DNA from: a virus
Virus record (IMG/VR): IMGVR_UViG_3300034071_000380
Location: 14,687-78,686 of that record
Length of the DNA: 64,000 nt
Strand: one strand, 5' to 3'
Part shown: piece after piece, positions 1-16,684 of the stretch
Numbering within the stretch: position 1 is the first letter of the stretch
Layout of the letters: every line of letters begins with the position of its first letter
Program-made: the position numbers and the translations under genes
Notes under the pieces: generated by a model
Databases searched by the model: none
The model's input: the letters and a program-made list of their open reading frames with translations, nothing else
What the model was told of the DNA's origin: nothing

Positions 1-3000
1 TCATTTCCATTAATTGCTTGACGCTAATTCCATACTTTGCAGCAATTGCAGATAATGTATCTCCTCTGCCTACTGTGTATCTATCATTTTCATAATCTGA
101 CTTAGCATCATCTGCGCTGTAATATTCTGGTGTGCCATATCCATATTTAATAGTATCTACTGGCTTATATGAAGGTCTTCCAAATCCTACAATTGGAGCA
201 TTCTTCATATTGTATTGTCTTACTTTTGCAAGTACTCCGCCGCCGCTTCTTTGACTTCCAGAACCAGATGTATTTCCTTCTATAGTTGAAACTGCATTCT
301 TGCTTAAAACTTTTCTTACTAGTCCTACGTGAGAGATTCTATTGACGCCGTCTCCTGGGAAATCCATAAAGGCTAGATCTCCACGAAGTGGACTCATTGT
401 TGTCCACTTGCCGCTCTTCCTAAATGATTGAGCTCCACCAGGAGTCCATATCATGCTTGCTAAATCTACTCCAGATTTTTTTGCCGCCCAATTTATAAAT
501 GCACCACACCATGCAATAAATCTAGTTTTTAAATCATAAGCTTTTTGTGCAAAGCTTCCAAATATTGTGTCGTTGCCTCTTCCTTCTTTATAACCCAACA
601 TAGACTCTGCTGTTTTAATCATTGAGTCTGCTGTGCCCATTTTAGTTACCTTGCCGCCATTAGCAAATCTGCCAGCGTTTAGGTTATCAAGAAAATCTGG
701 ACCAAGGTTTCTGCTTGCCTTCTCAACTGAAGAGGCTTTAATTACATATTCACCATCTGAAAGATATGCTGGGATAGAGTCAGATGTTGAAGTGCCTGGA
801 CCCATTACGTCCCCGCCTGGAGCGTAGTGTTTTACAGCCCCACCTTGTGCAAAAGTAAAGTTACTTCCTGGGTTGTCGTATCCTGGGTTATACCATCTTC
901 CAACAAGTTTATTATTTTTTAAAACATCGCCATTCTTTTTATATAAATATCCACCCTGATTTAAATCTTTAATTGGCCCCAACATTTCTAAACTTTGTCC
1001 GCCTCCATATGTTGGATGCACAAATGATTGATTTGATCCAGCAGGTCCACCTACTGGAACTGGCATAACACGAGCTTGCTCTCTTGTGTACTTAACTCCA
1101 GTTGAACGATTTTGAAATCCTCCAGTAGCGGGGTCAAAAGATAATCTAGCTCCTGATGTTGGCGTAGGAGTTCCAGACAGTATTTTCTTTAGTAATCCCA
1201 AAACTTCTGTATCTGATGTTTTAAGTTCTCCCTTTTCGTTGTAAATTGCTTTACCAAATGCTGACTTAGCTATTTCCTCTATGCCACTTGGATTTGGAAC
1301 AAATCTGCTTCCTACATAGCTACCGCCTCCACCAGATAGAGATCTTGCTATGTCTTTATATCCAGCTTTTTCTAAATCAGATATAAGCAGATTAAGTCTA
1401 TCTTTCTCTGTTGGACTTAATTCACCATCTGTTGCAGAAGTTGTTAGTGCAAGGAGCTCTGTGAGCAACGAGCTAAGATTTTCAACTTTTGCGTTTGCTG
1501 CATCAGCTGTCTTTTTTGCTGAATCTACTTTATTCTGAAGTCCATCAATTCTTGCATTAAGTGCATCAATTAATGATTGCTCTGCTGCAATATCTTGTTC
1601 AGCTTTTAAATCAATTGCTCTCTTTGCTAAAGTAACTTGCTGAGATCCAACTAACTGTTGAATTGCAATTTGTGCTTGTGCTGCACCAGACATATCTCCA
1701 GCAGCTAATTTGTCTTGATACTCAAGCTGCTTTGCTTTAATTCTAAGATTAATATCTTCATCTGCATTTTCTTCATCTAAAGCTTTCTTTCTTGCGTCCG
1801 CTTCTTCTTTTATTTTTTGAATCTTTTTATTATGTAATTCAATTTCTTTACGAAGAGCCTTAGCTGAAAGTTCTGCGTTTTGAATAATTTGTTCTGCATT
1901 TGTTTTTGAAACCTTTGCCATATCTTTTACAATTTGTGAATATGGACCAGATTTTAATGCTTCTCTTTGTTTTTCAATTATTATAGAAAGAGCTTCAGCG
2001 GCTGCTGGCCCCATATTTACAAAATCTAAAGCTATTCCAGATGTAGAAAGTCTAACTTTTGCCATAATGCTTGCTAAAGTATCTGTTGTGTTTAGAAGCC
2101 TATTCATCTCCGCATTTTGCTTTACTATAGCATTGACACCCTCAATTCCAATTGCTACATTTCCACTAGATGTTGCCTTTATCTGCTTTAATATTTCCTG
2201 ATAAGATTCTGAAGAAGTTATAAGTTTGCCATTTTTATCTTTTGTATTCTCAATTGAATCTGCTAAATTATTATAAGCATTTAATGCGGTATCCAAGGAC
2301 TTGCTTAGCTGGTCTGTATTTCCATTTTTAATTACATTATTAAATGTTTCCAGGGTAGACTTTGCAGCAGAAGCTTTATCTGTAATAGTTCCAAAACCTT
2401 TATCTCCTAATACTGACAAAGCCTGGGCTGATTTATTTGAAATTGAAATTAATGCATATATTAATTCATTTGCATTTTCTACAGACATCCCGCTTGATAC
2501 AAACATGGCTTTTAGTTGAGTTGCTTTCTGTGCCAACTCTTGCTCAGATGCTACATTTAGCATTTTAAGTTCTGTTGGTAACTGTTCCTTAGCTTGCTTT
2601 TTTAGTTCATCAAATTCTTTTACAGTTATATCTATTCCTTGACCAGGAGCTTTTGTTGTAGTATATTTAAATGCTGCCGCCGCTGCATTTCTTAATTCAA
2701 TTTCCTTTTTGTTTTTTTCTATAGATGAAGTTAAAGTTTTATAGTTAAGATTTAGCTTTTTTACAGTTTCTTCTTCTAGGCCAAAAGCGGAGTCAATTAT
2801 TCTTCGTCTCTCATTAATTTTGTCATTAATGGTTTTTATTGCAACTCCTACACCAAGTAAGACAGCTATTAATTTGACTGGCCCAGGCATTTTTGTAAAA
2901 AGTTGAAATGCTTTTGTTAATAAAGTTGTTTGAGTTCTTGCTGTTCCTGCAGCCTTAGACATAAGGAACATGTCTGTTGCCATTTGACCAACCATGTATC

Positions 3001-6000
3001 CGCCCATTTGCCCAATACCGCCAAACATTCTGCCGCCAACTTGACTTAATCCAAATCCAGCAGCCTGCCCTAGAAGCATTGACTTCATGTATCCAGATGC
3101 TCCAATTCTTGGCTGAACAATTCTTTGTTCGTTTTCTTCCGCAAAGTATTGAACTCCAGGAACTACCCCGCCCTTTGAGAATCCAGGAATAATTCCACCA
3201 GACATTTTTGGAACAAATATTTCTGGGCCATTCTCTCCAACCAAATATGGTCTACCACCAGTAACTGGTCCTCCGCCTGCACGAGCACCATCAACAACTG
3301 TCTCTAATTGTATCTTGCCATCTCCTGCATTAACAATTCTAAACTTACCACCAAAGATTGATTCTTGTTCTGACCTTGAATTATGTCCAGCTACCTTTTG
3401 TCCAAATGGCGCTGAGAATCTTGCATCTGGGAAAATATCTGATGCTGGAACAACATTTCTATTTCTTACAATTGCTTCTAACAGAATAGCTTTTTGGTCT
3501 CCTGGAGCAGAATGGCCAGGGGCAAACAAACTTGCTACATCTCTATTTTGGCTCCACGATGAGCGGCGCATTATAAATTCTCTTCCAATTAAAGGAGTAT
3601 AGTCTCCAGTTAATTTTGCCTGAGATATTAAATCCAATATATCTGCTGGCAACGGATTTGATTTATTATTCTTTAAAAATATTCCTCTGTATAGTCTTCC
3701 AGTATATTTTCTTGATAAAGTTTTTACTGCTTCTGTAGCGCCTGGAGTTTGCAAAATGCCATAGTTTCCAGCCATGTATTGACGCAATATGTATCTGCCA
3801 CGATCCTCTAAATTACCAATTGGGAACTGAGGAAGCACTGCTTGTCTTGCAAATCTGTCGTCACGATATAAAATTTCACGAGTCCACTCAGGCTCATTTT
3901 GCATATTTTTTGGAACCATTGTTGTTCCAATTTGTAATGGCCCATGAAGTGGATCTTGGTTTCCTAGTGTATATTGATATCCTGGTTTTCTGAACTGCAT
4001 TTGTGGCTTCCACTTTGCAGTTAATTTATCAAGCTTTGACTTAGATAAAGACTTTACTATTCTTCCAACCATGTTGGTTCCAAAGTTTTGTATGATCCCG
4101 CCCATATTTTTTCTTTGTATTCTAGCTACTTTATTTTCTTTTAGGGCAACATAATCTCGTTCGTATAATGCGGTTGGATTATATTGAGTTAAAACTCTTT
4201 CTATTTCTGGAATTACATCTTTTGTAAAAGTAAACTCTGCGCCAAGCTCTGGTCTATCTCCTATAGTTGGAAGTTGATCTACTGAGACACCACGTCTTTG
4301 TGCTTCGTTTTCAAATCTTGTTCTTATTGCTGAATCTATTGCTTCTTCAGCTTCATCCCATTGAGAAAGAGGAATTTTTGCAGCTCTTAATTGATTTCTA
4401 TATTTGTTTACTCCTGCTACCTTAACAAGGTCTCTTCTTAAAAAGTCGGATGGTCTAAGGTTATTTTGGTTTGCTGATAAATTAGTTGCCGCTGTATAAT
4501 CTACAATATAGTTGCTTACTAATACTTTTCCATCTCCTAGTTTTTTACTTACTGTAAGATGCGTACCATGTCTTGGCTCTGCATATGGAAGTGCATCTAG
4601 TCCATTTTCTACAAACCTTGAATTTAATTCGCTAACATTTTTTGACTGTAATGTTCTTGATGTTTGAGAATGAAGTGCTGGATCTTTTTTAGACCTAGTT
4701 AATTTATCTGTAAAGTTTTTAGCTACATCTAAATATTTTTGTTTTAATACAGGATCTGGAATATCACCAATTTGAGAAATAAATCCTCTAGCATCTGCCC
4801 CTCTTGCTTTTATGCCATGAACAGTTTCTACTACATCTCTATTTCTAGTTGTAGAAAGACCTTTAACAATTCTATTAGGCATCATTCTGCCAAAGAATTG
4901 CATACCGTCTATCATTCCGCCTTTATTTCTATTTTGAATTGGAACTATTACCGCTTTACCTTTATTGTATAGATGAAGTCCTTCTGGGTCACGAGCTGTT
5001 TGTTCTTTAGTTACAACAAATTCTCCTGGAGTAAGCATTGCTGGAACGGTATCTGTATTTCCCTGACCAGGTACAAATCTACCTTGTTCGGTAGTAAATA
5101 CTTGTCCACCCATATTTAATCTTCTTGGTCTAGTTGTTTCTGTTGAATATGGTGCGCCAAATGTTTTAACTCTCAGTGCTTCAGCAATTCTTGTAATAAG
5201 ACCTCTGTTTCTTGGTCTTGTAAGTTCTTTCATATTTGATTTTCCAGTTACTGGATCAAATGCTGGTTGATCTACAATTGGCAACTGTGTTAAATTAATT
5301 GTTCTTCCTTGTGCAGTAGCAACTCCTGTTGCTGCCTGCCCCATCATTGCTTCAATCTGTTGGTTTAATGCAATAACTCTTGCTCTTGCTTGTTCAACAG
5401 TTATCTTAGATGCTTGAAGATCTGCAACTATTTGTGCTGATTCTGATGCGGCAAGTGATGTTAATCTTGACATTTCTGGAAGAAGCGCTTGATATGAATC
5501 TGATAATGATGTAGTTATTAGTCCAGTTGCTGCAACTTCTCTCTTTAATAATGCTATTTCTTCTTTTGATTGCATTGCTAATGCACCAGTCATTGCATGC
5601 CACTTAGCAGCTTCTTCTGCAACAATTCCTGTTGAAACTCCACGTACCGAGCTGACTCCCTCTATCTTTGGCAGGTCGCCAGACATATACATTTGTGGGT
5701 TATTGCTTATTTTTTGATTAACTAATGGTGCTCCTGGAACAATGCCAAATATTGTTTGTGCAGCTTTTTGTTCTGGTGTCATCTGGCTTACTGGATTTGG
5801 ATGAGAAAAAGATCTAGTATCTCTATCGCTTACAAGTGGGTGGCTTGGAACAACTTCTCTTGCACCAGCAATAATTGTTTGCCCAGCAATTGTTGATATT
5901 GTTGGTTGTGATGAAATTGTAGCTGATCCTGCTTTTGTTTGTAATTGAGTTAATTGATCATTTACATAGCTAAGCGCTTCTCCAAGTGCCATAGCTGCTT

Positions 6001-7825
6001 TAGCATCATTATAAAATGTTTGCTCTACTAAGTTTCCAGCTTTTTGTGCTGCTAAAATTTCTGGTGTTAATAAACGCCATCCTTCGCCGCCTTTGAAAAA
6101 TGCTCTAAGATGAGCGGCGCCCTTAACAACATATCCTAAGAAGTTTGCAAGCACACCAGTTAACATAATAAGTGGTCCAGCCAGTGCTGTGAATCCAGCA
6201 AATAGACTCATTAAAGTTTTTACTGGTCCAGGTAGTTTATTTGCAAAATTTACAATCTTGTCAAGAACATTTATTAAAAATGTTCCAACATTTAAGAACT
6301 GCTCTCCTACTCCAGCCAAGTCTGCTTTTAGTTGCTCTAATGCTCTACGGAATCTACCAGAAGCAGATTCAGTAATTTGTGCTAATTCTCGTCCAGCTAC
6401 ACTTGCTAAGTCACCTGCGCTTGCATTCATTAAATCTAAAACTTGTAAAGTCTGGCTACCCTGTCTACCTAGGTTATCAAAAAGGGCTGATAGTCTAGCA
6501 AATTGGAACTTACCAAAAAGTTGTTCAATTGCTTTTGTTTTGCTAAGAGGATCAAGTCTGTCTAAAGCTTTTTGCAAATCTAAAATAGTGGCAGTTAGGT
6601 TTCCAGCGTTACTTGTAACGATTTGTCCCAAATCAATGCCAAGACCCATGAACATTTCTTTTGCAACTTTAGTAGGATTGATAAGTGAAGCTAGGGATGA
6701 TTTAATTGCATTTGCGCCTTCTGATGCATTAATTCCTCCTTCTTTCATTGCAGTTAAATATAAAGCAAGATCTTCTATATCTCCACCCAAAGATTTAATT
6801 ACTGGTCCCGCCTTTGGAATAGCTTCTACTAAATCATTAAGAGTTGTTGAAGTTTGGTTTTCAACAGCGTTGAGGAAGTTAATAGACTCTGCTAACTCTT
6901 GAGTATTTTGATTAAAAGCTGTTTGAATTGCAAGAGTGGCCTTCATTGCTTCTTGTCTATCTACTTCACCAAGAACTGAAAGTCTAGTAGTTTCTCTTAC
7001 TGAGTTAAGGAGCTCTGCTCCTTCTTTTCCAGTTGCAGCTATATCTGCAGATAAGGCTATAGTTTCTTTATAAGATGCGCCATACTGTGCTGCTAATTCT
7101 TTTGCTGTTGCAGCAACTTCTTTTCTTACTGTAGCTAGCTCTGCTGCAGAGCTTCCTGCTATTCCGCCATAAACTTTTGTTAAACGAACTAACTGCTCGT
7201 CTGCTTCTCTAAATGCATCTGCTGCTGCTTTACCAAATGCTGCAATTGGAACTGTTAAACCAACTGTTAGCTGTCTACCTGCCCACTGTGTATTTTTACC
7301 CCAGTTAATTAATTGAACTCCGCCATCTTGAATAACCTTATTAAAGATTTGCATTTCTTGCTTAAGCAGAGCTGCTTTGTTTTTAGTTTCGTCTAAACCT
7401 CTTGGTATATTAACATTGAATTGCATAAGCCCCTCGGCATTTCTACCGAGAGGCTGAATGATTGCATTCTGTAAAGCTACTTGCTGTCTAGCAAGATCTC
7501 TAATTAATCCGCCAGAAGTTCTACTGTGCTGTTGCCAGACACCGTAATACTCTCTTAACTTTAATCTACCCTGATCTAAATTTTTTCCAAATTTATCAAC
7601 ATCAGCTGTTAAATTAACAAAGTGTGTAGAGAATTGTCCAGTACTTCTTAAAGTACTTGCAAAGCCCTGCTGTATCTTTGTTGCATTTAAAGCTAACGCT
7701 TTATCTGTGTTAGTTAAAGTTTGCTTTAATTGAGATAACTGAAGATTAACCTTATTAACATTTGAAATAAGATCTGAAAAGTCTGCACTAGCAACTATAT
7801 TGGTGACTACATTTTCGCTAGCCAT
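1..7825 (-). CDS. Tail tape-measure protein, >2608 aa, 3' end outside window; polyvalent: TMP core, uncharacterised insert, ADP-ribosyltransferase, CHAP amidase, LysM
   Basis: ATG at 7825 (MASENVVTNIVASADFS). The same frame was read at several points down to position 2. It is absent from the ORF track, consistent with no stop in the window. TMP-like helical region (NWGKNTQWAGRQLTVGLTVPI); LYRG/RSSWS/EQE at ~3360-3700; AWCGAF..SHVG..IEGN at ~270-520; YTVGRGDTLSAIAAKYGIS at ~10-80. Lies downstream of the tail chaperones. Confidence 0.92.
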   Translation of the reverse strand, partial: MASENVVTNIVASADFSDLISNVNKVNLQLSQLKQTLTNTDKALALNATKIQQGFASTLRSTGQFSTHFVNLTADVDKFGKNLDQGRLKLREYYGVWQQHSRTSGGLIRDLARQQVALQNAIIQPLGRNAEGLMQFNVNIPRGLDETKNKAALLKQEMQIFNKVIQDGGVQLINWGKNTQWAGRQLTVGLTVPIAAFGKAAADAFREADEQLVRLTKVYGGIAGSSAAELATVRKEVAATAKELAAQYGASYKETIALSADIAATGKEGAELLNSVRETTRLSVLGEVDRQEAMKATLAIQTAFNQNTQELAESINFLNAVENQTSTTLNDLVEAIPKAGPVIKSLGGDIEDLALYLTAMKEGGINASEGANAIKSSLASLINPTKVAKEMFMGLGIDLGQIVTSNAGNLTATILDLQKALDRLDPLSKTKAIEQLFGKFQFARLSALFDNLGRQGSQTLQVLDLMNASAGDLASVAGRELAQITESASGRFRRALEQLKADLAGVGEQFLNVGTFLINVLDKIVNFANKLPGPVKTLMSLFAGFTALAGPLIMLTGVLANFLGYVVKGAAHLRAFFKGGEGWRLLTPEILAAQKAGNLVEQTFYNDAKAAMALGEALSYVNDQLTQLQTKAGSATISSQPTISTIAGQTIIAGAREVVPSHPLVSDRDTRSFSHPNPVSQMTPEQKAAQTIFGIVPGAPLVNQKISNNPQMYMSGDLPKIEGVSSVRGVSTGIVAEEAAKWHAMTGALAMQSKEEIALLKREVAATGLITTSLSDSYQALLPEMSRLTSLAASESAQIVADLQASKITVEQARARVIALNQQIEAMMGQAATGVATAQGRTINLTQLPIVDQPAFDPVTGKSNMKELTRPRNRGLITRIAEALRVKTFGAPYSTETTRPRRLNMGGQVFTTEQGRFVPGQGNTDTVPAMLTPGEFVVTKEQTARDPEGLHLYNKGKAVIVPIQNRNKGGMIDGMQFFGRMMPNRIVKGLSTTRNRDVVETVHGIKARGADARGFISQIGDIPDPVLKQKYLDVAKNFTDKLTRSKKDPALHSQTSRTLQSKNVSELNSRFVENGLDALPYAEPRHGTHLTVSKKLGDGKVLVSNYIVDYTAATNLSANQNNLRPSDFLRRDLVKVAGVNKYRNQLRAAKIPLSQWDEAEEAIDSAIRTRFENEAQRRGVSVDQLPTIGDRPELGAEFTFTKDVIPEIERVLTQYNPTALYERDYVALKENKVARIQRKNMGGIIQNFGTNMVGRIVKSLSKSKLDKLTAKWKPQMQFRKPGYQYTLGNQDPLHGPLQIGTTMVPKNMQNEPEWTREILYRDDRFARQAVLPQFPIGNLEDRGRYILRQYMAGNYGILQTPGATEAVKTLSRKYTGRLYRGIFLKNNKSNPLPADILDLISQAKLTGDYTPLIGREFIMRRSSWSQNRDVASLFAPGHSAPGDQKAILLEAIVRNRNVVPASDIFPDARFSAPFGQKVAGHNSRSEQESIFGGKFRIVNAGDGKIQLETVVDGARAGGGPVTGGRPYLVGENGPEIFVPKMSGGIIPGFSKGGVVPGVQYFAEENEQRIVQPRIGASGYMKSMLLGQAAGFGLSQVGGRMFGGIGQMGGYMVGQMATDMFLMSKAAGTARTQTTLLTKAFQLFTKMPGPVKLIAVLLGVGVAIKTINDKINERRRIIDSAFGLEEETVKKLNLNYKTLTSSIEKNKKEIELRNAAAAAFKYTTTKAPGQGIDITVKEFDELKKQAKEQLPTELKMLNVASEQELAQKATQLKAMFVSSGMSVENANELIYALISISNKSAQALSVLGDKGFGTITDKASAAKSTLETFNNVIKNGNTDQLSKSLDTALNAYNNLADSIENTKDKNGKLITSSESYQEILKQIKATSSGNVAIGIEGVNAIVKQNAEMNRLLNTTDTLASIMAKVRLSTSGIALDFVNMGPAAAEALSIIIEKQREALKSGPYSQIVKDMAKVSKTNAEQIIQNAELSAKALRKEIELHNKKIQKIKEEADARKKALDEENADEDINLRIKAKQLEYQDKLAAGDMSGAAQAQIAIQQLVGSQQVTLAKRAIDLKAEQDIAAEQSLIDALNARIDGLQNKVDSAKKTADAANAKVENLSSLLTELLALTTSATDGELSPTEKDRLNLLISDLEKAGYKDIARSLSGGGGSYVGSRFVPNPSGIEEIAKSAFGKAIYNEKGELKTSDTEVLGLLKKILSGTPTPTSGARLSFDPATGGFQNRSTGVKYTREQARVMPVPVGGPAGSNQSFVHPTYGGGQSLEMLGPIKDLNQGGYLYKKNGDVLKNNKLVGRWYNPGYDNPGSNFTFAQGGAVKHYAPGGDVMGPGTSTSDSIPAYLSDGEYVIKASSVEKASRNLGPDFLDNLNAGRFANGGKVTKMGTADSMIKTAESMLGYKEGRGNDTIFGSFAQKAYDLKTRFIAWCGAFINWAAKKSGVDLASMIWTPGGAQSFRKSGKWTTMSPLRGDLAFMDFPGDGVNRISHVGLVRKVLSKNAVSTIEGNTSGSGSQRSGGGVLAKVRQYNMKNAPIVGFGRPSYKPVDTIKYGYGTPEYYSADDAKSDYENDRYTVGRGDTLSAIAAKYGISVKQLMEM

Positions 7826-7835
7826 TTTTTAGATG

Positions 7836-8150
7836 TTACCCCTTTTCATATCCTAATCCCGCTCCGATTCCAAATCCTGCCTGGGCTGCAAGTGGTCCTT
7901 GTAGTGAAACAACATCGTTTGCACCTGCATTTATTCCCAAGGCTCTTCTTTGTATATCTTCAAAGGTTGGACCTTCTTGTTCTTCTTCATCTTGACCTAA
8001 ATCAATTCCTTGAATAGATGCTAAGAATCTTCTTTTCTCTGATTCAGTTTTTTGCATTGACTTTAAAGTCTGAATGAGTTCTGGCATTGATAAGTTATCT
8101 TCTAGCTCGTCGTAATTCTTCCAATGACCTAAAAGAAAAACTTCTCCCAA
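7836..8150 (-). CDS. Tail assembly chaperone, post-frameshift segment
   Basis: Lies between the first chaperone and the TMP; TTG start; frame is open upstream to the slippery site at 8201-8207. Confidence 0.75.
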   Translation of the reverse strand: MGEVFLLGHWKNYDELEDNLSMPELIQTLKSMQKTESEKRRFLASIQGIDLGQDEEEQEGPTFEDIQRRALGINAGANDVVSLQGPLAAQAGFGIGAGLGYEKG

Positions 8151-8164
8151 TAAAGCGGCAAGAT

Positions 8165-8497
8165 CTAGTTCTGACCAGCCAGAACCGCTGCCGCTAGAAG
8201 GTTTGGGTCATCCATCTTAATTCCTCCGCATACTTCAAGAATGCGGTTGATTGTTGGAACATCCAATGCGTCTTCTAGTGCATCTCTATCTTTTACTAGA
8301 TCTGGCAATTGCTTTTCTAATGCTACTGCACATGCATCAATGAGAATTGTAAGCGTCTCATCTTCTGATGTAACTTCTGCTGTCTTCTGAATTGCTGCCA
8401 TGAACTTTCTAAGTTCTTTAATTGTCAAAGGCTTTAACTTTACCTTAGCCCCGTTTTGTAGTTCAATTTCTTCTACGTCGTAGATTGTAGTTGCCAA
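8165..8497 (-). CDS. Tail assembly chaperone (gpG-like)
   Basis: 110 aa acidic protein directly after the tail tube gene; LKPLTIKELRKF; GAGGA RBS. Confidence 0.78.
   Translation of the reverse strand: MATTIYDVEEIELQNGAKVKLKPLTIKELRKFMAAIQKTAEVTSEDETLTILIDACAVALEKQLPDLVKDRDALEDALDVPTINRILEVCGGIKMDDPNLLAAAVLAGQN
8201..8207 (-). other. -1 programmed ribosomal frameshift site C-CCA-AAC
   Basis: Minus strand reads GAC CCA AAC. A -1 shift continues PSSGSGSGWSELDLAALLGEVFLLGHW, in frame with 7836..8150. Confidence 0.75.
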
Positions 8498-8603: not shown

Positions 8604-9335
8604 TTATGCATAAACACGGTCAATAATCTTACCGTATTCTTGGCCAGCATATGTCGCATCTCCTGATGGGAGAAGACGGAATGTTACTGGGAATGTTGTT
8701 GGTGTGTTACGAGCTAGAGAGAACTGTGACTGCTGTACTGAAAGAACACGACGTGCATAATATACACGCTCATTCTTTCCGTAGCTAGTATTGTTGTAAT
8801 CTGGAGCTGGTCCAACTGCAATTAGCTGGCGCTCAACTGGTGCAGATTGCAAAGCTCCTGCTGCCAAACCTAGAACCTGTGGTGTTGTATCTGTTGGCTC
8901 TGCTGTTGTTAGAGTATCATCTCCGTCAAAAGCTGCGGCATTTACTCCACCTTCAGTAATTCCAGCTGTTCCTCCTGGCTGACCAAACACAACGAGAATA
9001 TTCTCAAGTGTTCCTTCTGCCATTTCTGTTGCTAGCATAACTTCCATTGACTCCTTGAACAGCTTAGCTGAATCTAGAAGCTGGTCTACTGTTACGTTAC
9101 CATATGTTGGGTTATAAGTAATCTGAAGACCGTTATTTGTGTATCCAACGTTGCGCCACTTTGTAGTTGCCGCATTAAGTGTAGTTGTATATGATTGGGA
9201 TGAGTTAAACTCTACCTTAGCACTACCCTTTGTTGGATCAAGATTTGAATCGCCATCGAATGCTGCTTGGTTGATGAACAACGGTGAAGCACCTACGATA
9301 ATGTTCTTGGCTGAATTGTATGTATCTCTTGCCAT
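8604..9335 (-). CDS. Major tail tube protein
   Basis: NIIVGASPLF, VGYTNNGLQITYNP, VTVDQL, FPVTFRLLP motifs typical of actinophage tail tubes; synteny. Confidence 0.82.
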   Translation of the reverse strand: MARDTYNSAKNIIVGASPLFINQAAFDGDSNLDPTKGSAKVEFNSSQSYTTTLNAATTKWRNVGYTNNGLQITYNPTYGNVTVDQLLDSAKLFKESMEVMLATEMAEGTLENILVVFGQPGGTAGITEGGVNAAAFDGDDTLTTAEPTDTTPQVLGLAAGALQSAPVERQLIAVGPAPDYNNTSYGKNERVYYARRVLSVQQSQFSLARNTPTTFPVTFRLLPSGDATYAGQEYGKIIDRVYA

Positions 9336-15094: not shown

Positions 15095-16684
15095 TTATTC
15101 AACCGTTCTTCCGTCTCCTTGAGCATTTCTGCCTTCTCCTGAAATATCTGGAGAATTGGCTTGTCTTTCTTGCTCTCTTCGACGGGTGTTATTTGCCTGG
15201 CTTCTAATTTCAGCTTGTTGCTGTGGCTTTAATTCAACCATATCATCGCCACCATCCAAAGGTATCATTCCTCTTCTAATTCTAACTTCATTAGGAGTAA
15301 TTACCTGCATTCTTAAATATCTCTCATCAATCTTAGATTGAGTATCCTCATCTGTAAGAGTTAATTCATTAAATTTAAGAGAAAGCGCATCTGTCTTTTC
15401 TTCAATAATTCTATTTAATTTCTTCTCTAATGTCATTTGTGATGGACGGCAAACTTGCTCTTTAAATGTTTTATCTGCATCTCTTGCAACCGCCAAATTA
15501 ACACCTTCTGGAGTTCCAATTTTATTAATTGGTACACGATGGGCCAGTAGAATTTCATCTCTATTTGCTTTACGATATACGTTAAATGATGACTCTTGTG
15601 CCCCCGCCTCAATAGGCTCCATTTTAAATTCAACCTTTGAATCTGGCGAATCTGCTGGAAGCGGAATATAAAGAGATCTATGGTTTTTGCCTCTAAGCCC
15701 AACCTGAAAAAACTCAAGAAGCTTGCGTTCTGACTCTGGAGAAAGCTTTGCGCCCTTTACGGTAATAATATATCTTGGGACTGCCTTGTTTTCAAAGTAG
15801 TCTAGGTTATACTTTCCAGCAAACTCATTTCCAGCCAAAGCATTTTGTGCCGCAATAATATCTGGGATGCCGTAGTAGTTATTCATCGGAGTATACTTCT
15901 TTAAATGAATAATTTCATTTGGTCGATCCTCTTGACCAGCAATTGGATTTTCTGTTTCCATGTCTCCAAAATTGCGGAAGAATACAGCCTTGCCATAAAG
16001 CAATTGAATAAATCCGTCACGCAATCTACGAACACGCATTGTCTTTGCTGGGATATGACCAATATATCCAATGTTGCCTGCTGTTGTGCGGCTAATTTCA
16101 ATATAGCCATTACCTGTTGCTTCTAAATCTGTGTATGCCTTGATAAGAGTTTGCGTAAAAGTGTCTTCATCATTTGTTGAGTCAAGCCATAGTTGTAAAT
16201 CTTGCTTTAACTTATTAAGCTTTCTGCGTGCCCGTTCTAATTGTTTTGGATCCTCAATTGAATCAAATGCATCGTTTGTCTTTTTAGTTTCTGTAAAGTC
16301 ATAGCCAAGTCCAACAATGTTTGCTACCTTTGCATTTATTGCTGCATAGTTATATGTTGAAATTTCATAAATCTTAGAAAGGTATTCTAAATTATATGGT
16401 GGTTCAATAAGATCAAATAGGGCATATCCAGTGATTGCCTGTGCTAATAAATTCTGTTGTGTTCCAGTATCTTCTCTACCAGTAAATGACTTAGATAATT
16501 CTCTGCTCATCTTACGACGAAATGCTGGGCTTAGCCCAGATACTTTTTTAAGGGAGTCTTCCTGCATCATAAATGGATCTGATGGATCCATCTCTGGATC
16601 CTTCTTTAGTCTAAACAAATCCGATGCAGAAGAAATCTCAATTCTGCTTGTTGATTCTGAATCGCTATCTTGTACAAACTCCAT
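15095..16684 (-). CDS. Portal protein
   Basis: DLEATGNGYIE, EIIHLKKY, YYGIPD, AHRVP, ITPNEVR motifs of HK97/PBSX-type portals. Confidence 0.92.
   Translation of the reverse strand: MEFVQDSDSESTSRIEISSASDLFRLKKDPEMDPSDPFMMQEDSLKKVSGLSPAFRRKMSRELSKSFTGREDTGTQQNLLAQAITGYALFDLIEPPYNLEYLSKIYEISTYNYAAINAKVANIVGLGYDFTETKKTNDAFDSIEDPKQLERARRKLNKLKQDLQLWLDSTNDEDTFTQTLIKAYTDLEATGNGYIEISRTTAGNIGYIGHIPAKTMRVRRLRDGFIQLLYGKAVFFRNFGDMETENPIAGQEDRPNEIIHLKKYTPMNNYYGIPDIIAAQNALAGNEFAGKYNLDYFENKAVPRYIITVKGAKLSPESERKLLEFFQVGLRGKNHRSLYIPLPADSPDSKVEFKMEPIEAGAQESSFNVYRKANRDEILLAHRVPINKIGTPEGVNLAVARDADKTFKEQVCRPSQMTLEKKLNRIIEEKTDALSLKFNELTLTDEDTQSKIDERYLRMQVITPNEVRIRRGMIPLDGGDDMVELKPQQQAEIRSQANNTRRREQERQANSPDISGEGRNAQGDGRTVE

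Follow-up and report, generated by a model that had tools for sequence, protein, structure and literature searches.

Can the tape measure protein (TMP) of a phage tail, i.e., a ruler, double as the carrier of an enzyme that modifies the proteins of the host? That is the question raised by a 64,000-nucleotide stretch of viral DNA, here 'the window', which is the last 64 kb of the 78,686-bp IMG/VR virus record IMGVR_UViG_3300034071_000380, a record that is linear and approximately 66% complete as judged by CheckV. The window contains much of a TMP gene, and it is within the product of that gene, at approximately amino acids (aa) 1240 to 1515, that an initial annotation had placed an R-S-E ADP-ribosyltransferase (ART) domain, that is, one possessing Arg, Ser-x-Ser, and Glu-x-Glu (ExE) motifs. 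Very probably this segment is indeed a domain of ART fold whose catalytic signature is intact. That it is as well an intact R-S-E-type mono-ADP-ribosyltransferase which is delivered by the TMP, i.e., the delivered-enzyme scenario taken as a whole, is a reading of the predicted structure that seems to us somewhat closer to right than to wrong, with enzyme activity, arginine specificity, delivery, and target being matters that we infer.

The carrier is a TP901-type phage tail TMP. Its open reading frame (ORF), as seen in the ORF list and its translation, occupies window positions 2..7825 on the minus strand (as do all of the TMP features described here) and continues beyond the window start. The window holds the first 2,608 of the gene's 3,718 codons, with the remainder found at G000:C1:11355-14687, and the complete gene (G000:C1:11355-22511) has a product of 3,718 aa. 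Pfam PhageMin_Tail (PF10145) is matched at aa 240-438 with 97.9 bits versus a cutoff of 33.2 bits (E 1e-27), PHROG TMP families match as well (phrog_10030 with an E of 2e-123), and aa 51-596 are 36% identical to the TMP of Streptomyces phage Karimac (E 7e-90). Gene order is also that of a TMP gene, this being the largest gene of the tail module, following the chaperone genes and preceding those of the distal tail. Upstream are found genes for portal, head protease, capsid, connectors, and an Ig-domain major tail protein, along with two chaperone-sized ORFs. By PhageMin_Tail, PHROG TMP families, and gene order, then, the ART domain is embedded in a genuine TMP, as the initial annotation had held.

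Three strings had been quoted by that annotation in support of an R-S-E signature, and all three, upon rechecking of coordinates, are found exactly and where they had been placed in the minus-strand TMP frame. These are YTGRLYRGIFL (aa 1374-1384; window 3706-3674), FIMRRSSWSQNRDVASLF (aa 1417-1434; 3577-3524), and HNSRSEQESIFGGKFRIV (aa 1481-1498; 3385-3332). For the first of these the claim needs narrowing, as it is the arginine of LYRG (R1380; aa 1378-81; 3683..3694) that is conserved, but the string's earlier arginine, R1377, varies (K, T, or R). R1380 and the following G1381 are invariant in 121 of 121 sequences and R1380 lies within the first core strand, i.e., as the 'R' of R-S-E. The 'S' motif is MRRSSWS (aa 1419-25; 3551..3571), in which S1423 is invariant and with which the second core strand closes. 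The ExE motif lies within EQESIFGGKF (3341..3370), with EQE corresponding to aa 1486-88, and neither of its glutamates, E1486 or E1488, varies. These are located where the next long strand begins.

The initial annotation had staked its claim on two things, catalytic residues that are conserved among homologs and a fold that is ART-like. As to the former, R1380, S1423, E1486, and E1488 all are invariant, along with G1381, R1420, R1421, and GGKF (1492-95), across 121 homologous TMPs extending down to 37% identity, and the same residues are invariant in a second, more diverse set (n=38). In the 121-sequence alignment, motif columns are the most conserved of the ART family. Considered over 141 ART-bearing proteins, the resulting patterns are [LF][YFH]RG, which is present in 140, MRR[SA]S[WF][ST], and E-x-E, with both glutamates retained, again, in 140 of the 141. 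Ten different residues are found between those glutamates. Because the middle residue thereby is free while both glutamates are fixed, ExE appears to be a functional signature rather than a product of general sequence inertia.

As to the latter, the predicted fold is ART-like, with only ARTs found at the top of structure searches of the kind that the initial annotation had proposed as a check, i.e., AlphaFold followed by Foldseek. The cassette as a whole (aa 1240-1515; 3281..4108), as delimited by comparison of ART-bearing with ART-less TMPs, extends from an NMGG junction to just beyond the last ART strand. An AlphaFold2 (AF2) model of aa 1249-1510 (m5318b6cbad03), built from a 38-row alignment of diverse homologues, has a predicted local distance difference test score (pLDDT) of 80.3 and a predicted template modeling score (pTM) of 0.71, and from that model, together with VIA-align and Foldseek, the catalytic core is placed at aa 1337-1510 (model residues 89-262; 3296..3817). 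R1380 is found within model strand 124-135, which is the first core strand, S-W-S closes model strand 168-177 with a helix coming next, and E1488 is the first residue of a long model strand, 240-253. Such placement of R, S, and E is the canonical layout of C3/VIP2-type R-S-E ARTs.

Foldseek, as run against the PDB, has as its top matches Vis toxin, C3bot1, Certhrax, SidE-mART, HopU1, CDTa, Tre1, iota Ia, and Plx2A, with E of 1e-4 to 5e-3 and probability of ~1.0 for the top ART matches. A Foldseek-independent scan, that of VIA-align over 48,161 representative PDB chains, supplies 23 chains with Z of at least 5.7, all of which are ARTs or ART-fold domains, with eight of them at Z of at least 8. 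The best match is 8za7_B (Z 8.7; root-mean-square deviation of 3.2 Å; 136 residues aligned), CPILE-a, Vis, and C3stau2 have Z of 8.5, 8.4, and 8.2, respectively, and other ART matches include HopU1, Certhrax, VIP2, C3bot2, Tre1, SpvB, and ExoS. Weaker matches still are members of the ART superfamily (Tpt1, TreX, Scabin), and it is not until a Z of 3.4 that a first unrelated fold is seen. Among the viral models of BFVD, matches are to phage ARTs, to MuF-ART and portal-ART fusions, to ModA, and to Alt (the latter at rank 40). As a negative control, the neighboring aa 975-1240 were treated in parallel. These were modeled equally well (AF2 pLDDT of 82), with a best VIA-align Z of 4.3 over mixed, unrelated folds and no Foldseek match with E below 0.8. 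Because so well modeled a neighbor matches nothing, the ART-fold signal is not a by-product of method.

That control bears also upon what may be viewed as the most deflationary of explanations, which is that there is no ART at all, with the motifs present by chance and the model wrong. R...SxS...ExE patterns are, it is true, short, and the AF2 model is unvalidated. The explanation is extremely improbable, however, as fold matches are exclusive to one superfamily, the negative control stands side by side with them, and the motifs both lie on canonical secondary-structure elements and represent the family's most conserved columns.

A number of observations nevertheless weigh against the segment's identification as an R-S-E ART, most of them involving searches at the level of sequence. 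Pfam, including PF03496, with E up to 10, has no ART match for the segment, for 15 aligned homologues, or for 5 divergent homologues, nor does PF03496 match anywhere in the record as scanned in all six frames, also with E up to 10. NCBIfam has no match to the ART segment, PHROGs have no ART family for it (with TMP-family matches confined to the junction motif which follows the ART), and the PDB as searched by phmmer and by profile has no match to it. Nor, among cultured phages, was any match to the ART found when 50,697 records were searched using tblastn. Comparison, using hhalign, of 15- and 139-sequence profiles with single T4 sequences gives probabilities of 0.3-2.8%, with pairwise E of 0.016-0.18. 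In terms of structure, Foldseek template modeling (TM) scores are low, 0.3-0.45, and a VIA-align Z of ~8 is middling in absolute terms according to that tool's own note. As to the motifs, the middle residue of the Ser motif is W or F, i.e., S-W-S is seen rather than S-T-S, and 65 residues separate Ser from Glu, as compared with approximately 40 for C3 and iota toxins. Any gathering of R, S, and E about a pocket for nicotinamide adenine dinucleotide (NAD+), lastly, is putative.

Membership in PF03496 (ADPrib_exo_Tox) was considered and rejected, there being no match to that hidden Markov model (HMM) even with E up to 10. Despite its weak probability, hhalign does set LYRGI upon QLYRGI of ModB and EQE upon EQE of ModA and ModB, and in that same weak alignment the Ser motif plus A..FA.G falls upon SAS...IALHFASG of ModA, with EQE..G..FRI in register. 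Resemblance to T4 Alt, ModA, and ModB thereby consists of local motif alignment over LYRGI, S-x-S...A..FA.G, and EQE..G..F+I, with hhalign probability below 3% and specific kinship unsupported. The hhalign alignment to Alt was itself spurious, and ModA and ModB probabilities are far too low for kinship to be claimed. A feature search of the ESM Atlas supplied sub-threshold leads only (0.87-0.89), including one cluster with PF03496 in 60% of its members, and this we treat as a lead rather than as evidence.

That no HMM recognizes the sequence may be viewed also as favoring a different possibility, namely that the fold is real and catalytically dead, having been kept as a structural, spacer, or binding module in the manner of anthrax lethal factor, the ART domain of which is degenerate. 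That inactive, ART-like domain is in fact found among the fold matches (1yqy, Z 6.1). We nonetheless view a dead fold as very unlikely, as R, S, and both glutamates are invariant over approximately 140 sequences at identities down to 37%, even as the residue flanked by those glutamates is free, as the cassette is under purifying selection (pairwise ratios of nonsynonymous to synonymous substitution rates, dN/dS, of 0.15-0.24), and as closely related TMPs manage without the module, which hence is not needed as an element of a ruler.

How widely, then, is this ART distributed? In a collection of 5.8 billion proteins the domain is found in at least 120 giant TMPs, ranging in length from 1.4 to 3.8 thousand residues. 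Exhaustive phmmer searching of 1.84 billion representatives supplies 42 clusters that possess the ART domain, and all of these are TMPs or pieces of TMPs. A profile search of proteins of 139-478 aa for stand-alone relatives found none other than two proteins, P0126 and P0226, that probably are gene-call fragments: The C-terminus of P0126 is that of a TMP, and P0226 consists of 268 aa on a 1.5-kb contig. At a related locus, L030, the ORF continues upstream. As no family model detects the module, and as there is no stand-alone relative, it would appear, judging from sequence, to represent a new family that is confined to TMPs and which is missed by Pfam, NCBIfam, and PHROG models.

By fold, and by its Arg, Ser-x-Ser, and ExE motifs, the module as modeled is a member of the R-S-E (C3/VIP2/Alt-like) structural clade. 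Among toxins, its fold is like that of C3 exoenzymes, Vis, Certhrax, VIP2, iota, CDTa, C2-I, and SpvB (Z of 7.8-8.7 with ~135-147 residues aligned), and alike too are the positions of an aromatic-R-G arginine on the first core strand, of a Ser motif that ends the next strand, and of an ExE which precedes the strand following. Toxin ARTs of the C3/VIP2 type differ, however, in that no sequence similarity to the module is detectable, with PF03496 silent. The module differs from toxin ARTs also in having S-W-S for S-T-S, in a Ser-to-Glu loop that is approximately 25 residues longer, and in the cassette having an extra, invariant motif, DPLHGPLQIG, in its N-terminal part. Toxin ARTs, in addition, are secreted or are secretion-system effectors, whereas the module is embedded midway along a protein of a phage tail. 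The DPLHGPLQIG motif (aa 1291-1300; 3926..3955) is linear and is found in a loop of low pLDDT. Its exact sequence is present in 127 of the 141 ART-bearing proteins versus 1 of 82 that are ART-less, and its possible roles include those of processing site, NAD+ lid, and docking motif.

ARTs with ExE usually modify arginine. With ExE being the motif seen here, arginine is the most likely acceptor. An active ART fold need not be a protein-arginine transferase, that is, it could be instead an NAD+ glycohydrolase or it could transfer to nucleic acids or small molecules. Substrates of such enzymes include, for example, DNA (pierisin, Scabin, and DarT) and rifampicin (Arr), and in the case of ModB it is RNA that is transferred. 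Consistent with such alternatives, Scabin (Z 3.8), Tpt1/KptA (Z 4.8 and 3.2), and Arr (Z 2.8) are found among the lower fold matches, and the invariant pair of arginines preceding the Ser motif (MRRSS), which is not standard in protein-targeting ARTs, could bind phosphate or nucleic acid. ART-fold effectors that are NADases also exist (PMC13285283). We view these alternatives as unlikely, though, given that all 23 of the top-ranked structures represent R-S-E enzymes that modify proteins, or else relatives of such enzymes. A strict ExE, furthermore, is typical of arginine-specific protein ARTs, and few copies of an enzyme per virion would be ill suited to depleting a cell of its NAD+. A transferase of ADP-ribose to host proteins remains the preferred reading.

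If the module is an enzyme, then of what use is it to a TMP? Relatives were identified using as query the ART-free TMP aa 572-900, which supplied more than 1,100, with counts taken from the best 120. Among these best 120, 40 TMPs possess the ART and 80 do not, with the 80 ART-less proteins 62-81% identical in aa 572-900 and having a median length of 2,152 aa. Because closely related TMPs lack the module, the ART is not needed as a ruler element. Comparison of a TMP with the ART (P0011) to one without (P0146) finds 283 aa in place of 25 aa, with flanks that align to both sides and with the junction in both proteins built of linker units of the type GG...GE..V. On a FastTree phylogeny of 200 TMPs at least seven gains or losses of the ART are seen, a figure that is rough, since sampling, being by similarity, is biased. 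As judged from these comparisons of sequence, the ART is an optional cargo cassette found at one fixed TMP junction.

A second architecture exists as well, in which the ART is found approximately 115 residues from the TMP C-terminus (L030:1-2143 on the plus strand along with P0076, P0079, P0084, P0085, and P0130). In such TMPs the ART, being so near to the C-terminal end, would therefore leave the tail early. Nor is the ART the only module that comes and goes. The region immediately upstream of it (aa 975-1240; 4106..4903), i.e., the above-noted negative control with its pLDDT of 82 and lack of a fold match, is present in 14 of 142 relatives, and a C-terminal module of 770 aa has any similarity at all in 11 of 142, with high identity in few. 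With these upstream and C-terminal modules found in only 14 and 11, respectively, of 142, the TMP may be seen as a conserved scaffold bearing exchangeable cargo.

Of these two modules, the upstream one was considered as a partner or immunity domain for the ART and was rejected as such, having no fold match and being absent from all but 14 of 142 ART-bearing relatives, i.e., it is not coupled to the ART. The C-terminal one, of approximately 770 aa (TMP aa 2830-3600; G000:C1 ~11.7-14.0 kb, before the window start), is without a Pfam match. Following the ART is a junction unit, GGPV...RPYLVGENGPEIFVP (3203..3295), which is a motif common to many TMPs as based on PHROG TMP families, and the ART-less P0146 has a single GGGDIIPALIEPGESVV unit where here are found the ART cassette plus a unit of its own. 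More generally, TMP modules are bounded by repeated xxGG junctions along with units of the form GG-x-[VI]P-x-[LM]-x-x-GE-x-V, as seen at window positions ~5116, 4927, 4108, 3205, 3178, 850, 823, and 664 on the minus strand.

The tail lumen of a virion is occupied by TMPs, which exit from it upon infection and contribute to the crossing of the host envelope. A phage with an ART so placed probably brings with it, going by the predicted structure, a ready-made, host-modifying enzyme as a portion of its tail contents. The initial annotation had proposed just such a use of the tail ruler as a delivery vehicle, and the parts for it can be found along the TMP. A first hydrophobic, transmembrane-like segment (aa 537-571; 6113..6217), which is preceded by KLPGPVK, has a Kyte-Doolittle maximum of 1.92 and is retained in the family consensus. 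A second (aa 1645-1670; 2816..2893), preceded by KMPGPVK, has a Kyte-Doolittle maximum of 1.79. The ART lies between these two segments, and C-terminal of the second are both a CHAP peptidoglycan peptidase domain (aa 2438-2518; 272..514; Pfam PF05257 along with PHROG endolysin families) and the start of a LysM peptidoglycan-binding domain (aa 2583-2631; 2..79; Pfam PF01476, E 5e-12), the latter running off the window.

Delivery might be envisaged as follows. The TMP would be assembled into the tail lumen with its cassette in an unfolded or extended state, as with those modules of other TMPs that are cell-wall hydrolases. Upon adsorption the TMP would be expelled C-terminus first, with CHAP and LysM then acting in the cell wall and with the two hydrophobic segments, aa 537-571 and aa 1645-1670, entering the membrane. 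The intervening ART stretch would come to face the cytoplasm, as no other compartment has NAD+, and there refold. It would then ADP-ribosylate one or more host proteins, most likely on arginine, at or before entry of the phage DNA. If each hydrophobic segment spans the membrane once, and if CHAP and LysM stay within the wall, then the ART stretch should indeed face the cytoplasm. A cargo that is catalytic makes sense in this regard because there are few TMP copies per virion. As for targets, RNA polymerase or defense factors had been suggested by the initial annotation, and these may be entertained solely by analogy with T4 Alt.

This scenario has its difficulties. The distribution of charge around the two hydrophobic segments is ambiguous in terms of positive-inside reasoning, fixing no clear topology. 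A folded domain of 30 kDa cannot fit within a tail tube, and because of this both storage and refolding have to be assumed. The arrival of the middle of the TMP in the cytoplasm, too, is presumptive, and it is upon this last point especially that a different timing of action can be hung. That is, the ART could be active late and in the producing cell, modifying host or phage proteins or the TMP itself, as with effects upon tail assembly or lysis timing. The TMP, after all, is made in a cytoplasm that contains NAD+, the domain could fold there prior to or without assembly, and its reaching of the next host's cytoplasm is a presumption. No ADP-ribosylglycohydrolase (ARH) or macrodomain partner was found in the 79-kb record, which is ~66% complete, and without such an 'off switch' late activity would go unopposed.

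Late action seems distinctly unlikely even so. The module is found in a protein that is expelled at infection, beside CHAP and LysM, which better fits a role in entry. An enzyme acting late, moreover, would not need fusion to a TMP, yet no stand-alone copy exists among the 1.84 billion representatives or among the proteins of 139-478 aa. Tail chaperones also are thought to keep TMPs unfolded. Delivery with the tail contents thus is the reading retained here. A more specific and more tentative version of it, to which we would assign somewhat less than an even chance, is that the TMP is an effector-translocating polyprotein, with two helices that thread the membrane and present the ART as a loop to the cytoplasm while CHAP, LysM, or OmpA reside in the wall. 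If true, then this would represent a tail-lumen route for cytoplasmic enzymes that is distinct from that of head-packaged internal proteins, the TMP would be analogous to cargo delivery by contractile injection systems, and the cassettes, i.e., the ART, aa 975-1240, and that of 770 aa, could be swapped much as are the tips of polymorphic toxins.

Two further observations concern the segments which bracket the cargo. The unit 'K[LM]PGPVK + hydrophobic helix' is duplicated, with its copies to either side of the cargo region, and just ahead of the second of these copies is a zipper-like stretch that is rich in Gly and Met (aa ~1585-1625). In some relatives (P0012, P0060, P0110), which are ART-bearing TMPs, an OmpA-like domain (PF00691) is found in place of CHAP plus LysM, which suggests that wall-binding modules are swapped among ART-bearing TMPs.

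Delivery of ARTs by virions is itself not new, but known examples are head-packaged only, i.e., T4 Alt and MuF or portal fusions. T4 Alt is carried within the phage particle as a virion-borne R-S-ExE ART that acts on host proteins at entry and that can thereby reprogram the host (annotation; PMC9503650), and it resembles the present module in being a phage R-S-ExE ART that is virion-borne, with delivery in the present case predicted. Alt differs in being a free, head-internal protein of a myovirus that is injected with the DNA, whereas the module is part of a TMP polypeptide and of a siphovirus-type tail. Fusions of MuF with VIP2 occur within the virions of actinophages (PMC7302621). These, portal-ART fusions, and polyvalent, head-packaged effectors (e.g., gene 4 of Microbacterium phage Percival) are alike in that an ART is borne on a virion structural protein and presumably is delivered (PMC7302621, PMC5576092, PMC9503650, PMC5512222). 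With MuF and portal fusions, however, the carrier is a head protein and the ART is simply C-terminal, whereas here the carrier is a tail TMP and the ART is internal or subterminal. Pfam searching of the full 3,718 aa gives PhageMin_Tail, CHAP, and LysM only, with no MuF (SPP1 gp7) or portal domain, and the portal gene is separate (15095-16684) and without an ART.

Enzymes within TMPs are not new either. Motif 3 of the Tmp of mycobacteriophage TM4 is a peptidoglycan hydrolase that is located inside of the TMP and is dispensable for virion formation, i.e., enzymatic motifs that function in entry, and that can be done without, may be found in the TMPs of actinophages (PMC1796659). TM4 Tmp is similar to the present TMP in that it is an actinophage TMP with an optional enzymatic module, and the present TMP additionally has CHAP and LysM. 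Known TMP modules act on the cell wall and outside of the membrane, however, which is a location that an ART does not fit, because an ART needs NAD+ and thereby implies a cytoplasmic site of action. The TMPs of Karimac (gp60; 2,099 aa; a Streptomyces phage of the BE cluster) and of Gordonia phages share the N-terminal TMP core, and Karimac shares as well the gene order of capsid, connector, major tail, chaperone, and TMP, but TMPs of the Karimac type are without the ART, with the ART HMM giving no match in the Karimac TMP. The literature searched, coverage of which is incomplete, nowhere mentions a TMP that possesses an ART, and the word 'tape' occurs zero times in three surveys that consider, respectively, phage NAD+/ADP-ribose systems, polyvalent proteins, and polymorphic toxins (PMC9503650, PMC5512222, PMC3482391).

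Phage ARTs are found mostly in myoviruses, with siphoviruses considered to be poor in enzymes of NAD+ and ADP-ribose (PMC9503650). If the above interpretation is correct, then an intact ART within a TMP shows the tail lumen to be carrying a cytoplasm-directed enzyme in addition to wall-degrading modules, and this raises the question of how far, and in what topology, a TMP enters a cell. The natural presence or absence of the ART among close relatives provides a comparative system for considering what benefit it may supply, such as takeover of transcription or translation or the neutralizing of defenses.

The ART family recurs in lake-water metagenomes and in phages with an actinobacteriophage-like TMP core, and the host here probably is a lake actinobacterium. 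Among 253 cultured-phage matches to the TMP core, 127 are from phages of Streptomyces and 105 from phages of Gordonia, with Rhodococcus, Tsukamurella, and Nocardia following, so that, as considered by TMP only, all but a handful infect Actinobacteria. DNA of the ART is present in metagenome runs, at least 18 of them, from lake water or freshwater. A Gram-positive host would fit with CHAP and LysM, an argument that is qualified by the OmpA-like domains of some relatives.

Among neighboring genes, two small ORFs, of 104 and 110 aa, are found in the position of tail assembly chaperones (7836..8497, minus strand), in the same order as Karimac genes 58-59, with the 110-aa ORF, which is upstream of TMP, matching phrog_344 tail assembly chaperone (E 8e-4). 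In the position of the major tail protein (8604-9335, minus strand) there is a match to the PHROG 'protein with Ig domain' (E 3e-28), which identifies a decorated tail tube protein.

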